Positions 5,701 to 59,278 of a stretch of 64,000 nucleotides of DNA are shown piece by piece (positions within the stretch are counted from its first letter, which is position 1; each line of letters opens with the position of its first letter). The translations under genes were made by a program, and so were the position numbers. The DNA is from Escherichia coli (GTDB lineage Bacteria > Pseudomonadota > Gammaproteobacteria > Enterobacterales > Enterobacteriaceae). The stretch lies in NCBI RefSeq assembly GCF_050320075.1, contig NZ_CP190018.1. The stretch is one strand, 5' to 3'. Below the pieces are notes generated by a model that worked only from the letters and a program-made list of their open reading frames with translations, was not told where the DNA came from and ran no database searches.

Positions 5701-7253
5701 AACGGTTGAACCTGCTCTGCCAGGTGACGCTGATCGACCCCTTCGCGCAATAGTTCGCGAGCGACATCCCACGCCTCGTTACGCGCCAGCGGGCCATTAA
5801 TTGCCACCACCAGCTGATAAGCCTGCTCAAACTGGCTGTGCGCGGTTTGCGCCATGCTCATTTTCTGCTCAAGAGAGAGCATTTTTTCAGTCGCTTCCAG
5901 CTCTTTCGCCTGGAAGGTTTCCAGCCATTCGGCGGCGCTGTCGGCGGTTAAGTCCGGCAGATGGCACAGTTCTTTGGCACGATTAAGCGCAGCAATCGCC
6001 TGGTTATACTGGATCGCGCGCGTTTGCTGGACGTCCAGCGCCTGCTGATAGTCAGCAAGCTGGCTTTTCAGCTCGTCCACTTCCAGTTCGGCAGCTTCCG
6101 CACGAGCCTCGTTCTCTTCCTGGCGTTCGATGGCTTCTGCCACCACTTCGTTTTGCTCTTCCAGACGGATCTGCAGCTCATCGAGATCCGCTTCGTAACG
6201 TTCGATCTTCTCCTGCTGACGCAGTGCGGTTTGCACCAGGTTCAGGTGATCGCTGGCCGCCTGATAATCCGCTTCCAGATCGCCTTCGGCACCGTTGTGC
6301 TCTGCCAGCTCACGCGCCATATCGACGTGTTTGTACTGCTCAGCCGCCAATTGCTGACGCGAAGTATGTAGCTCGCGACGAAATTCCAGGGCTTTGTCGA
6401 GATGGACACGGCGCTCGTTGGCGTGACGCATGTAGTCCGCCGCCACGTAGTTGGTGGCTTCGCTGATCAGATGCTTAAACAGGTCACGGTCCGACTGGGT
6501 GACACGAATCGCTTCCAGCGTCATGCGATTTTCACGCAGTGCCGCTTCCATGTCCTGGAACGCTTTACGCACCCCGCTGTTTTCCGGCAACAGGTAGTCG
6601 CGCAGAGAACGAGTAATGGCGCTGGAGATCCCGCCATACAGCGAGGCTTCGATCAGACGATAGAATTTGCTACGGTCAGATGCGGAGCGCAGACGACGCG
6701 CGATGATGCCCAGATCGAACATCAGCGAGTGGTAATCGGTAATGGAGTTGAACTGTTTAAACTGCACGCCTTCCATCGCCTCGAGCTTGTCTTTCAGCTC
6801 GTTAAGCGGCAGCACGCGCGCCTGGCGTTCGTTCAGGGTTTCGGTCACCAACTGCGTCGGCAGCACCGACATCGGCAGGCCCTGAATGGCAAATGGTTTG
6901 ATATCCACTTTACGATCGCGTCCGGCAACCTGTTGCAGACGCACACCGACCACCACGCGCTGGTGGCGCGAGTTAATGGTGTCGAGCATCGAATAACAGA
7001 CACCCGCTTTCAGCTTACCGTGCAGACCTTTATCACGCGAACCGCTGGTGGCCCCGGCTTCCGTAGTGTTACGGAAATGCAGCAGGGTCAGGTCGGGGAT
7101 CAGCGCCGTAACGAACGCCGCCATGGTGGTGGATTTACCCGCCCCGTTACCGCCAGAAAGCGTCGTGACCAGCTCGTCAAGGTCAAAAGTTCGGGCAAAA
7201 AAGCCGTTCCAGTTAATCAGCGTCAGTGAGCGAAATTTACCGCGTTCAATCAT
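2793..7253 (-). CDS. mukB: Chromosome partition protein MukB (SMC-like condensin)
   Basis: 1486-aa ORF; N-terminal Walker [10 protein letters not shown], long coiled coils, C-terminal head; length matches MukB. Confidence 0.97.
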
Positions 7254-7957
7254 TATTCTTCCTCTCCGCTATCTGGCTGACTCTCTTCGGTTTCATCGTT
7301 GAGTTGCAGATGATTTTCAATCGGCATTGCTTCGCCATCACGAATCAGGCGACGCTGTGCTTCACGGGGATCGTCGCCAGCACGCACATCGGCTCCGAAG
7401 CGGAACACCGATTCGGTAATGCGGAACTTGCTGCTGTCGTGGCCCATAAACCACACCATGCCCAAACGACGCAGACGGTTGAGCGAAGAACGTACTTTCT
7501 CCTGCAACTTCTGCCGGTCAACGTCTGAACCGGTTGAACGGTTGTTCACCAGTTTCAGCAGTTTCGCTTCATCGGCCAGGGTGAGCAGTTCGTCGTACAG
7601 TTCCTGTTGAGTAAAAATCCCCTCATTCGCCAGCCGTTCCGGGCTGAGATAGAGATAACAGAGGATTTTCCCGACCATCATATCCAGTTCCGACAAGACG
7701 GAACGAGGGATCAGCGTGGTGGAACGTGGGCGTAAATAGAAGAACCCTTCCGGTGCACGAATAAGCTCAACGTTATAACGCGCGTAAAACTCTTCCAGAT
7801 ATTCCTGAAAATCCATCAGGAATGCATGATTATCCAGTTCGTCGAGGCCAATATGGCGGCCTGAACGTAAGGCGCTATCCAGCGCCGGAAATAACGGATT
7901 CGCCAGCGCCTGCGCCAGCTTAACCGGCATCACTTGTTCAATATTTGTCGATGACAT
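7253..7957 (-). CDS. mukE: Chromosome partition protein MukE
   Basis: Track ORF 7253-7984; conserved MukE N-terminus MSSTNIEQ starts at ATG 7955-7957; stop TAA shares one base with the mukB ATG. Confidence 0.9.
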
Positions 7958-9260
7958 GCGCCTGTACCTTGGCTCCGTAATCATTAATCGGCTGCCATTT
8001 CGCTGGCAGTCCGGTGAAATCTGCTTGCGCTACGCCAAGACGTACCGCCTGATCAATAACAATGCGCGCAACGTCAAAGTGACGTGCACGCGGATACTGT
8101 GACAGATATTCGCGTACCACCAGACCAAGATCCAGCGGCACTTGTCTGGTTTTGTACACGGCGAGTTGTTCTTCGATGATCGCCGCCAGCTGTTCGCGGA
8201 TCTCGTTAAACTCTTCGTACTCCAGATCCTCAGGAAGTTCTCCTGTCACTTCTTCATCGCGCAGAGCCATCTCTTCGTCACGCATATCCAACAGACGATC
8301 GGCATTGGCATAAGTTAGCGCCCACGGCTCATCAAAATAGGTTTGTACCGACTGACGTAACCGCTGAGCAAAGACGCGGTTTTTATCCATATCGATTGCG
8401 GTACGGATAAATTTGTGTACGTGGCGGTCGTAGCCAATCCACAAGTCTATGGATTGCTGGCCCCAGCTGATAATACGGTCGAGTTTGCTCTGCAGATCGA
8501 ATACCAGACGATCGACAAAATGCAGATCGTCATGGGTCATCGTCGCATCCTGAATGCGCAACAGATTAGCCTGCAATTTGTCGCCTGCCGCTTCCAGCGT
8601 ATCCTGCAATTCACGCAGCGTTCCGGAAGTTTCCGAAAGCAACAATTCACAGCTGGAGATCGCCGCCCGCCAGTCTTTGTTCAGCAACTGGGCGATATCG
8701 TCCTTCACCTGCTGCTGCTGTTCGTCCATCAGACGTTGCGTCAGGTCGATACTGTCAAAAATTTCTGCTACCGAATATTTCAGCGGCGCATAGACATTAC
8801 GGTGCCAGTGAAATTCATCACCGCCCTCTTCGGCGGCATCTGCTGCGCGTTTGAGCTCACCCGCCACAATCGACAACTGCATAGAAAGGCGCAGCGTAGA
8901 AAACTCGCGCTGACGGATGTAATAGTCAGTAATGCCGATGCCGAGCGGCGTCAGACGGTAAATTGCGTTCCCTTCCGCCTGCTCGCTGGTAAAGCGGTTC
9001 AGCAGACGTTGACGCACCATGTCGTTGATCGCGTTGTTGGCGCGCACGCCGATGGTTTCGCTGGTTTGCTCAAACGCATCACTCACATGGCGGAATGCAT
9101 CCACCAGCTCGCCTTCACTCATCTCACCATCCAGACGCTCGCCGTTCAGCGTGGCAACCGCCAGCAGAAAAGAGAGTCGGTCTACCGGCAGCGAGATGGA
9201 GAAGTCATTTTTTCTGGCCCAGGCAACCAGTTCGGGGACTGTCTGGGAAAATTCACTCAT
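7938..9260 (-). CDS. mukF: Chromosome partition protein MukF (kleisin)
   Basis: 440-aa ORF recognised as MukF; overlaps the mukE start. Confidence 0.95.
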
Positions 9261-56214: not shown

Positions 56215-56302
56215 GGTGAGGTGTCCGAGTGGCTGAAGGAGCACGCCTGGAAAGTGTGTATACGGCAACGTATCGGGGGTTCGAATCCCCCCCTCACCGC
56301 CA
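56215..56302 (+). tRNA. serW: tRNA-Ser (anticodon GGA)
   Basis: 88-nt sequence GGTGAGGTGTCCGAGTGG...GGTTCGAATCCCCCCCTCACCGCCA with long variable arm; anticodon GGA at 56249-56251; encoded CCA end. Confidence 0.95.
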
Positions 56303-56313
56303 TATTTAAAGAA

Positions 56314-56347
56314 AAGCTCGTACGAAAGTGCGAGCTTTTTTTTCGCA
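56314..56347 (+). terminator. Rho-independent terminator after serW (copy 1 of 3)
   Basis: Hairpin GCTCGTAC-GAAA-GTGCGAGC followed by a run of eight or more T. Confidence 0.7.
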
Positions 56348-56493
56348 TATTGCACTCCAGGGGGGATGAGAAGCCCCGACCGGGGTTCGACAACTGGCGC
56401 AGCCAGTTGGACAGACCACGAACACAGTGAGTGGGCTGCCCGCAGGGCGAGCGAAGCGAGTCAATCCCCCCCTCACCGCCATATTCAAAGAAG

Positions 56494-56527
56494 AGCTCGT
56501 ACGAAAGTGCGAGCTTTTTTTTCGCAT
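56494..56527 (+). terminator. Terminator-like hairpin, repeat copy 2
   Basis: Same hairpin plus T-run inside the second repeat unit. Confidence 0.6.
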
Positions 56528-56672
56528 ATTGCACTCCAGGGGGGATGAGAAGCCCCGACCGGGGTTCGACAACTGGCGCAGCCAGTTGGACAGACCACGA
56601 ACACAGTGAGTGGGCTGCCCGCAGGGCGAGCGAAGCGAGTCAATCCCCCCTCACCGCCATATTTAAAGAAAA

Positions 56673-56700
56673 GCTCGTACGAAAGTACGAGTTTTTTTTC
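56673..56700 (+). terminator. Terminator-like hairpin, repeat copy 3
   Basis: CTCGTAC-GAAA-GTACGAG followed by TTTTTTTT. Confidence 0.6.
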
Positions 56701-56939
56701 GCATTTTATCTGCCTGTACGGCAGTGAACGGTATAAAAATCGAGTTTTTCTTTCGGTTGGCTTTCTAAGCTGCCTGTACGGCAGTGAACTCAAATACTAC
56801 ACGTTTAGTCCGTTATTAATAAAGCAAAACCATCTCATTTTCCTGCTGCCACCCTTTTTTATTCTTACCTTCCAGCACCATTAATTATCAACAACTTACC
56901 TTCACCTCCAAAAATAGGGTTTTCACCGCCCCAGCCTAC

Positions 56940-56978
56940 AAACAAAAAGTCCGTAACCTCTTTCGAGATTACGGACTT
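56940..56978 (-). terminator. Rho-independent terminator downstream of clpA
   Basis: Minus-strand hairpin AGTCCGTAA...TTACGGACT followed by TTTTTGTTTG. Confidence 0.65.
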
Positions 56979-57001
56979 CACCAACCTACCTGACAATCAG
57001 A

Positions 57002-59278
57002 TTAATGCGCTGCTTCCGCCTTGTGCTTTTGTGCACTCTGGAATCCATAAGTCAGCTCATTTTTCTCTTTATCCAGCGCAACCGTCACCTGACCGCCGTC
57101 CACCAGCGAACCAAACAACAGTTCGTTGGCGAGCGGTTTTTTCAGGTTGTCCTGGATGACACGCGCCATCGGACGTGCGCCCATTGCCCGGTCGTAACCT
57201 TTCTCGGCCAGCCAGTTACGCGCTTCCTGGCTCACTTCCAGAGAAACACCTTTCTGATCCAACTGAACCTGCAACTCGACGATGAATTTATCCACTACCT
57301 GATGGATCACGTCGGTGGAGAGATGATCGAACCAGATAATGTTGTCGAGACGGTTACGAAACTCCGGCGTAAAGATCTTCTTGATCTCTTCCATCGCATC
57401 GGTGCTGTTGTCCTGGTGGATAAGACCAATCGATTTGCGCTCAGTTTCTCGTACCCCAGCGTTGGTGGTCATCACCAATACCACGTTACGGAAGTCCGCT
57501 TTGCGTCCGTTGTTATCGGTCAGCGTACCGTTGTCCATCACCTGCAACAGAATATTGAACACGTCCGGGTGCGCTTTCTCGATTTCGTCCAGCAGCAGCA
57601 CCGCATGTGGATGCTTGATGACCGCATCAGTCAGCAAACCGCCCTGATCAAAACCAACGTATCCCGGAGGCGCACCAATCAGACGGCTGACGGTATGGCG
57701 TTCCATATACTCGGACATATCAAAGCGCAGAAGCTCAATGCCCAAAGCTTTCGAAAGCTGTACCGTCACCTCTGTTTTCCCGACCCCGGTAGGGCCGGCA
57801 AACAGGAACGAACCGACCGGTTTATGTTCGTGACCTAAACCTGCACGCGCCATCTTAATGGCTTCAGTCAGCGCCTCAATGGCTTTATCCTGACCGAAGA
57901 CCAGCATTTTCAGGCGATCGCCGAGGTTTTTCAGGGTATCGCGGTCACTCTGAGAAACACTCTTCTCTGGAATGCGTGCAATACGGGCCACCACGGACTC
58001 AATATCCGCCACATTAACGGTTTTCTTGCGTTTGCTTACCGGCATCAGGCGTGCGCGAGCGCCCGCTTCGTCGATGACGTCAATGGCTTTATCCGGCAGA
58101 TGACGATCGTTAATGTATTTCACCGCCAGCTCTACCGCTGCACGCACCGCTTTTGCGGTATAACGCACATCGTGGTGCGCTTCATACTTCGGTTTCAGGC
58201 CGTTGATGATTTGAACAGTTTCTTCGATCGACGGTTCAGTAATATCAATTTTCTGGAAGCGACGCGCCAAAGCACGGTCTTTCTCGAAAATGTTGCTGAA
58301 CTCCTGATAGGTTGTCGAACCAATTACGCGAATTTTACCGCTGGAGAGCAACGGTTTGATCAGGTTAGCCGCATCGACCTGACCACCAGACGCTGCACCC
58401 GCACCGATAATGGTGTGGATCTCATCAATAAACAGGATGCTGTTAGTGTCCTGCTCCAGCTGCTTGAGCAACGCTTTAAAACGTTTTTCAAAGTCGCCGC
58501 GATATTTTGTGCCCGCTAACAGAGAACCGATATCGAGAGAGTAAATCGTACAGTCAGCCATCACTTCCGGCACATCACCCTGAACAATTCGCCAGGCAAG
58601 ACCTTCCGCAATCGCGGTTTTACCGACACCAGATTCCCCCACCAGCAGCGGGTTGTTTTTACGGCGACGGCAGAGAACCTGAATAGCACGCTCCAGCTCC
58701 TTCTCACGACCAATCAGTGGGTCGATTCCGCCCACGCGCGCAAGCTGATTCAGGTTCGTCGTGAAATTCTCCATACGTTCCTCCCCACCAGCTTGTTCTT
58801 CGCTGTTTGGCTGGCTGCCAGGATCAGAAGACTGTGTCGGCTCGTCTTTACGCGTGCCATGAGAGATAAAGTTCACCACATCGAGACGGCTGACTTCATG
58901 TTTACGCAACAGATATGCCGCCTGCGACTCCTGTTCGCTAAAGATAGCGACCAGAACGTTTGCACCGGTAACCTCATTGCGACCGGAGGACTGGACATGG
59001 AAGACCGCACGTTGCAGCACACGCTGAAAACTCAGCGTCGGCTGTGTGTCGCGCTCCTCTTCACTGGCAGGCAGAACGGGTGTGGTTTGTTCAATAAAGG
59101 CTTCCAGTTCCTGACGGAGCGCAACCAAATCCACAGAACACGCTTCCAGCGCCTCCCGGGCAGATGGGTTACTGAGCAGCGCCAGTAACAAGTGCTCGAC
59201 GGTCATAAACTCATGACGGTGCTCGCGCGCTCTGGCGAAAGCCATATTTAAACTGAGTTCCAGTTCTTGATTGAGCAT
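57002..59278 (-). CDS. clpA: ATP-dependent Clp protease ATP-binding subunit ClpA
   Basis: Conserved start [19 protein letters not shown] at ATG 59276-59278 (track ORF starts five codons upstream); two AAA+ modules with Walker A GESGVGKT and GPTGVGKT. Confidence 0.97.

Follow-up and report, generated by a model that had tools for sequence, protein, structure and literature searches.

The two identical dyad-symmetric segments that lie between serW and clpA in the window, as we call the whole 64-kb stretch of Escherichia coli DNA analyzed here, almost certainly belong to a type I-F orphan CRISPR array that carries a single csy3-derived spacer. We identify this feature as the orphan CRISPR4.1-2 mini-array and assign a probability of about 0.85 to the reading in which the array, inert alone, acts as an ‘anti-cas’ barrier against its cognate system. 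That this particular copy is a presently effective barrier, and not a relic, is somewhat favored. The feature is real but ordinary: both the anti-cas idea and the array itself, with locus, name, and repeats, are already known from work published between 2010 and 2016. The addition made here is only small. In the survey of 2010, the spacers listed match Cas1, Cas3, and Csy2 but not Csy3 (PMC2886076), and the csy3-spacer group is absent from that list.

Anatomy of the two-repeat array

The first-pass annotation had recorded a perfect 20-bp duplication in non-coding DNA, and this part of its description is borne out. The motif CTGCCTGTACGGCAGTGAAC occurs in two exact copies, at positions 56710–56729 and 56770–56789, with a start-to-start distance of 60 bp, and both copies are non-coding and lie between the last serW-type terminator hairpin (56666–56699, scored on both strands by a terminator scan) and the clpA terminator (56946–56979). 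The window contains exactly these two copies and no more when up to three mismatches are allowed, and two matches to the motif arose in none of 100 dinucleotide-preserving shuffles of the window. Two details of the duplication had been misread. The inverted repeat, noted as CTGCC-GTAC-GGCAG with a 4-nt loop, reads CTGCC-TGTAC-GGCAG, in which arms of 5 bp enclose a loop of 5 nt. The duplicated unit, noted as 20 nt, is 28 nt long, as the right copy runs leftwards to 56762 (TTTCTAAG followed by the 20-mer). The duplication appeared to span only 20 bp because the corresponding 8-nt extension of the left copy (56702–56709) has diverged at five of its eight positions.

The array is read on the minus strand, in the order leader (57001→56790), leader-proximal repeat R1 (56789→56762), spacer (56761→56730), and leader-distal terminal repeat R2 (56729→56702). 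R1 (GTTCACTGCCGTACAGGCAGCTTAGAAA) agrees at every position with the E. coli type I-F (CRISPR-4) consensus and has no mismatches to the repeats of both arrays of strain UTI89. It matches the Rfam family CRISPR-DR4 (RF01317) over the full length (1–28) with 50.1 bits, where the gathering score is 35, and an E-value of 1.6e-10; 27 of the 28 positions are identical to the family consensus, the exception being position 12 in the loop, which is U in R1 and C in the consensus. The single spacer (56730–56761, 32 nt; GCCAACCGAAAGAAAAACTCGATTTTTATACC in the crRNA sense) matches csy3, or cas7f, of type I-F systems. R2 (56702–56729; GTTCACTGCCGTACAGGCAGATAAAATG) is degenerate: its first 20 nt, consisting of the hairpin and the 3′ handle, are intact, whereas five of its last eight nucleotides are off consensus. 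Its match to CRISPR-DR4 (29.7 bits, E = 3e-4) falls under the gathering score, as expected for a terminal repeat.

The repeat hairpin CUGCC/GGCAG occupies repeat positions 6–20, pairs in a 5-bp stem around a 5-nt loop, and folds at −8.6 kcal/mol. The same 28-nt length, stem, loop, and hairpin position characterize CRISPR-DR4, the type I-F ‘Ypest’ family, which includes Yersinia and Pseudomonas repeats cut by Csy4/Cas6f; membership in the family is silent on the cas-less, self-system-targeting context seen in the window. Together, a 28-nt repeat and a 32-nt spacer make up the 60-bp period, which matches the UTI89 arrays and is the periodicity stated for type I-F arrays (PMC3506596). The earlier interpretation of the palindromes is partly supported: a ‘small structured RNA element’ was right in kind, as each copy encodes, on the minus strand, the stem-loop found in the RNA of a CRISPR repeat and is not an operator, while the CRISPR identity, the strand, and the spacer had all been overlooked.

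A search of the 64-kb window for further type I-F repeats, with up to six mismatches allowed, found none. With two repeats only, the array is under the threshold that automatic CRISPR finders apply, and in cas-less strains it carries no PGAP annotation. In strain LSC52 (L008, NZ_CM137002.1), PGAP places a ‘hypothetical protein’ (WP_012602745.1, 407–805) over the orphan array, very likely a spurious open reading frame. Since two-repeat arrays go unannotated, and the orphan array is in one strain even overcalled as a hypothetical protein, the ‘palindrome pair’ will resurface in scans.

On one side of the array, the leader (56790–57001, minus strand) extends over 212 bp from the clpA stop codon to R1 and contains the clpA terminator hairpin. 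Its A+T content is 60%, compared with 48.7% across the window, and the ~45 bp adjoining R1 are nearly invariant between strains. The 3′ end of clpA, the core gene that flanks the locus, follows at 57002–57600 on the minus strand, placed by the PGAP annotation of the identical region in strain YZLc1-3, to which the window region is 100% identical except for one additional 131-bp block in YZLc1-3. On the other side, the serW gene for tRNA-Ser(GGA) was located at 56215–56302 on the plus strand by ARAGORN and the Rfam tRNA model. What the first-pass annotation had called serW repeats are two RtT-like elements, organized as 179-bp tandem units at 56284–56462 and 56463–56641 (window 56284–56641), each of which closes with a duplicate of the serW 3′ acceptor end together with the serW terminator. 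Rfam RF00391 matches on the plus strand at 56345–56481 and 56525–56659, with 45.1 and 48.6 bits for a gathering score of 45. K-12 has no RtT-like elements at serW, and their copy number differs between strains. In YZLc1-3, the additional 131 bp lie at the RtT-like elements, which carry the PGAP label ‘RtT sRNA, processed from tyrT transcript’.

The array abuts this 179-bp tandem repeat, and a small hairpin is possible in each copy of the motif. Both facts are compatible with a Cas-independent structured RNA or terminator belonging to the serW/RtT block, or with a chance duplication that accompanied the serW/RtT repeats, and we consider either very improbable. K-12 and most other strains have both CRISPR repeats without the RtT repeats, the 60-bp period bears no relation to the 179-bp unit, the motif is unlike the RtT unit and has no other copy in the window at the three-mismatch limit, and no T-run comes after the hairpin on the minus strand. 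A chance duplication tied to the serW repeats, which the first-pass annotation had named as the outcome that would undo its own proposal, is at odds with the presence of the region in 5424 of 5426 complete E. coli genomes. Cross-strain comparison rules out that the pair is a by-product of the 179-bp serW/RtT unit.

The locus with and without cas genes

The window covers the infA–serW–clpA locus of E. coli. The clpA-infA locus has been named ‘CRISPR-III’, and a lone cas-less array in this position is designated CRISPR4.1-2 (PMC3903273, Almendros 2014); the same array was called ‘CRISPR3’ by Touchon & Rocha 2010 (PMC2886076). No cas genes were found beside the array in the window, where clpA adjoins the leader and the serW/RtT block adjoins the terminal repeat, and such a cas-less orphan is a described state of CRISPR-III (PMC3903273). 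The cas-positive arrangement is exemplified by UTI89, in which the order is clpA, a 9-repeat CRISPR, cas1f-cas3f-csy1-csy2-csy3-cas6f, serW, a 7-repeat CRISPR, and infA. In this architecture, serW is the landmark between the two type I-F arrays of cas-positive strains (PMC2886076). The shared repeat and a leader with 85.5% identity to that of CRISPR4.1 in UTI89 make the array in the window, by sequence comparison, a positional homologue of CRISPR4.1 that lacks the cas operon. Identity to the equivalent leader of K-12 is 87.8%.

A comparison with the complete type I-F loci of E. coli (UTI89, LF82, and ED1a) reveals what the orphan has in common with them and what sets it apart. The repeat, its orientation, and the 60-bp period are the same, and the clpA-side CRISPR4.1 leader is homologous, but the window has neither the cas operon nor the second array between serW and infA. 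It holds one spacer, compared with 6–8 in the complete arrays, and its terminal repeat ends in ...GATAAAATG instead of ...GTATTCACA and ...GTCTTCAAA. The spacer in the window aims at a gene of the type I-F system itself, which 0 of the 14 spacers of UTI89 do; these 14, compared with the UTI89 cas operon at up to seven mismatches, gave no match.

We rejected the possibility that R2 is the terminal repeat of CRISPR4.1 or CRISPR4.2 left behind by a simple repeat-to-repeat deletion, as it matches neither and the serW flank of UTI89 differs. Both serW of UTI89 (L004 9814–9901, NZ_CP062985.1) and the flank on the cas6f side differ in sequence from the serW region of the window. The sequences hint that the cas-serW-CRISPR4.2 segment may have been exchanged whole, as one block. 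In the same UTI89 record, csy2 (7203–8126) carries an internal stop and is labelled a pseudogene, and the type I-F system of this strain may be defective.

Thirteen cas-less strains were aligned or dissected, and 12 of their arrays were scored for R1. The leader-proximal repeat equals the consensus in 11 of the 12, and the terminal repeat ends in ...GATAAAATG in every strain sampled (n = 13). The 32-bp interval, by contrast, changes completely from one lineage to the next, as in the window compared with K-12. The number of repeats per array ranges from 1 to 4; spacers common to several arrays are distal, and additional units sit on the leader side. LSC52 has a 4-repeat orphan array, the three spacers of which target cas3f, cas1f, and cas3f. 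In strain TL20 (L014), a single degenerate terminal repeat remains, and in strains 2022CK-00450 and 129130 (L003/L015), a 4-nt deletion within a CCCGCCCACC run has reduced the cas1f spacer to 28 nt. In strain TUM18530 (L011), the flank of the array toward serW has a tyrosine recombinase/integrase gene at 1–240, and the stretch covered has no annotated serW; this suggests a putative genomic island integrated at serW.

The orphan array of K-12 MG1655, an example of the known CRISPR4.1-2 arrays (Diez-Villasenor 2010; Touchon & Rocha 2010; Almendros 2014; Almendros 2016), lends itself to direct comparison. It occupies the same locus, on the clpA side of serW, with the same leader, 28-nt repeat, and ...GATAAAATG end, and like the array in the window it consists of two repeats and one spacer, has no cas genes, and holds a spacer derived from a type I-F cas gene beside a CC PAM. 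The two arrays differ in three respects. First, the 32-nt spacer of K-12, although in the same position, is unrelated and targets cas1f instead of csy3. Second, the terminal stem is intact in the window, whereas in K-12 it is broken by the change G17A (G to A). Third, the two RtT-like repeats found between serW and the array in the window are absent from K-12.

This variation also bears on whether the two copies could be an operator pair for a dimeric transcription factor that regulates serW, clpA, or a small RNA. Two identical, dyad-symmetric, intergenic sites 60 bp apart have the appearance of such a pair, and a dimeric protein-binding site was one of the proposals of the first-pass annotation. 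As a transcription-factor operator, that proposal does not stand, since the interval is hypervariable while the copies are constant and units are added at one end. Operator behavior is not shown by a locus in which the repeats are constant, the intervals vary, and the intervals match cas genes beside a PAM. The full 28-nt unit belongs to a curated CRISPR repeat family, the copies number 1 to 4 in cas-less strains and 7 and 9 beside the cas genes of UTI89, and the intervals are cas-gene fragments with PAMs. Two repeat variants (C6 to T in R1 of WCHEC000837 and C9 to T in R4 of LSC52) retain pairing through a U-G wobble, which makes sense at the RNA level only. Copy-number variation and the hypervariable interval across strains effectively refute the operator reading, to which we attach almost no probability. 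The attributes of a type I-F array are, instead, directly observed: the repeat with its hairpin, the 60-bp period, spacer turnover with polarized gain, and an AT-rich homologous leader. Adjacent cognate cas genes are missing.

The csy3 spacer and its target

The spacer aligns with csy3 at 30 of 32 positions in each of two alleles. In csy3 of UTI89 (L004 8999–9030), the mismatches fall at positions 2 and 23, and in csy3 of strain 025542-1 (L005 201–232), positions 26 and 29 are mismatched; neither allele fits the spacer in full. In both alleles, the dinucleotide CC lies directly 5′ of the protospacer on the spacer-identical strand. The type I-F PAM of E. coli lies at the leader-proximal end and reads GG on the target strand, equal to CC on the spacer-identical one, and native type I-F activity has been reported in E. 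coli (PMC3506596). A 30/32 match within the 9-kb cas region has a chance expectation of about 4e-12.

The two alleles differ in where they depart from the spacer. Position 2 is PAM-proximal and falls within the seed of type I systems. The mismatch at this position to the common, UTI89-type csy3 could weaken direct interference, judging from the alignment; against the rarer 025542-1-type allele, the seed match is intact.

Among all complete E. coli genomes, the full-length matches of the spacer are csy3 of type I-F-positive strains and copies of the array, and nothing else. Phage and plasmid collections yielded no credible target, only short chance matches (E about 1–10). The sole full-length match in the plasmid collection (PLSDB NZ_CP134663.1, H83) is a 4.9-Mb E. 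coli chromosome mislabelled ‘plasmid’, which carries the same csy3-spacer array. A full-text literature search did not find the spacer sequence.

The preference for type I-F cas genes extends beyond the window. The 13 cas-less strains provided 10 distinct spacers, and all 10 match cas1f, cas3f, or csy3 of UTI89 with 1–5 mismatches. CC occupies the PAM position for nine of the 10, for which the binomial probability is about 1e-10 if the dinucleotides were random. The window's array combines what distinguishes anti-cas orphans: a clpA-infA position without type I-F cas genes, a spacer whose best match is a type I-F cas gene, and a CC PAM.

The spacer of the window is found in an array in about 410 of 5426 complete genomes (about 8%), a figure reached by subtracting about 100 unrelated long arrays from the 511 places where repeat-spacer-repeat is covered to at least 80%. 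Genomes with a match over at least 80% of the spacer number 652, equal to the sum of about 411 array carriers and 241 csy3 carriers; as arithmetic on summary counts, this would fit an absence of overlap between the two sets. Each genome listed with the exact spacer has a single place of match. The csy3 gene is present in 241 of the 5426 genomes, and cas-F genes occupy the CRISPR-III locus in 241 of 5426. The spacer assigns a strain to the csy3 group among orphan-array lineages.

Proposed barrier function

The array suggests the following course of events. Transcription would start from the leader, and in the cell of the window the transcript would be inert, with no type I-F cas genes at the locus. 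Upon entry of type I-F cas genes by a mobile element or by recombination, Cas6f would cut after G20 of each repeat and release one 60-nt crRNA, composed of CUUAGAAA, the spacer, and GUUCACUGCCGUACAGGCAG, with the last eight nucleotides of R1 (CUUAGAAA) as the 5′ handle. The newly arrived Csy complex and Cas2/3 would then be guided to the csy3 gene that accompanies them, so that the cas-carrying DNA would be degraded and primed adaptation triggered. In type I-F systems, Csy4/Cas6f cuts at the 3′ base of the repeat hairpin, so that 8 nt remain as the 5′ handle and 20 nt as the 3′ hairpin. A 60-nt crRNA requires the last eight nucleotides of R1 and the first 20 of R2, and these are exactly the parts that are intact. 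That only the first 20 nt of R2 are required explains why a perfect 20-bp duplication is accompanied by a diverged extension.

An ‘anti-CRISPR’ role for orphan arrays was proposed by Touchon & Rocha 2010 (PMC2886076). According to the review PMC8616872 by the Mojica group, Almendros 2016 found that native orphan arrays interfere with plasmids bearing the full set of type I-F cas genes and trigger priming. The window's array reproduces the anti-cas orphan arrays of these authors (Touchon & Rocha 2010; Almendros et al. 2016, Nat Microbiol 1:16081). It also resembles the mini-CRISPR arrays or solitary repeat units of viruses and plasmids (PMC8616872), which likewise have one spacer, a complete and a truncated or degenerate repeat, and no cas genes, and which depend on Cas proteins supplied in trans. 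The latter target a competing virus, whereas the array in the window is chromosomal and vertically inherited, occupies a fixed core-genome locus, and has a cas gene as its target.

Three steps of the proposed course (transcription of the window's array, termination at the serW-type hairpin, and efficacy despite two mismatches) are ones that we infer. A simple scan of 56600–57050 on either strand found no consensus sigma-70 promoter, and by eye only hexamers with 3–4 of 6 consensus positions could be recognized. With no such promoter in the scan, expression of the window's array would be expected from the literature on other orphan arrays, for which the summary of Almendros et al. 2016 in PMC8616872 states constitutive expression. 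At the other end, the terminator scan scored the serW/RtT-type hairpin on both strands, with a plus-strand site at 56666–56699 and a minus-strand site at 56691–56674. These terminator-like scores make the hairpin a probable stop for a minus-strand pre-crRNA.

The same type I-F orphan array could instead be a fossil: a spacer acquired from the cell's own csy3 would have caused autoimmunity that selected for loss of the cas genes, and the array would be a decaying scar without a present role. The hypothesis of cas loss by self-targeting is attributed to Diez-Villasenor et al. 2010 (PMC2886076), and the review PMC8616872 also states that a self-targeting origin had been suggested. We regard the fossil reading as possible, at well below even odds. 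It is in line with the lack of cas genes at the locus, the absence of a promoter consensus in the scan, the imperfect fit of the spacer to extant csy3 alleles, and the decay visible elsewhere, namely the terminal G to A of K-12, the lone repeat of TL20, and the 28-nt cas1f spacer of two strains. Against it, R1 retains the consensus in 11 of 12 arrays while the adjoining leader differs by 8–15% between strains, and precisely the parts needed for one crRNA are intact in the window. The arguments for retention in PMC2886076 and the interference with cas-F plasmids reported for native orphan arrays (Almendros 2016, through PMC8616872) point the same way. A self-targeting origin and a present barrier function are compatible, not mutually exclusive. 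We give little credence to the idea that selection has left a signature in the array, in that nothing was kept but the parts from which the crRNA forms (the final 8 nt of R1 and the initial 20 nt of R2).

It is also improbable, although less so than an operator or a serW/RtT by-product, that the orphan transcript is borrowed by heterologous machinery related to type I-F that arrives on mobile elements, such as plasmid-borne type I-F variants, or that the transcript acts without Cas on the convergent transcripts of serW-RtT and clpA, by an antisense effect or by termination. The former possibility has a precedent in type I-F3 CRISPR-associated transposons, which are described in PMC10369902 as co-opting host arrays.

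If the array is the barrier that we propose, it predicts that the strain would resist acquisition of a type I-F CRISPR-Cas system. Such resistance would bear on the engineering of type I-F tools in E. coli hosts of this kind, and on why type I-F stays in about 4% of complete E. coli genomes.

To look beyond E. coli, we searched a collection holding one genome per species for exact matches to the orphan-type terminal repeat. The search gave a single contig, which comes from an E. coli-like MAG and has the spacer of K-12. A csy3 gene is present in the type strain of E. coli, DSM 30083 / ATCC 11775. We take this strain to be the E. coli representative in the collection, and its csy3-positive state would explain the absence of E. 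coli from the result. An exact-match scan of one genome per species says little about presence of the array in relatives. The contig itself (JADFJT010000085.1, labelled ‘Proteobacteria bacterium’; L016, 1–1341) carries clpA, the array, and serW at 94–98% identity to the window, with a K-12-type cas1f spacer, and diverges from the window directly after serW.
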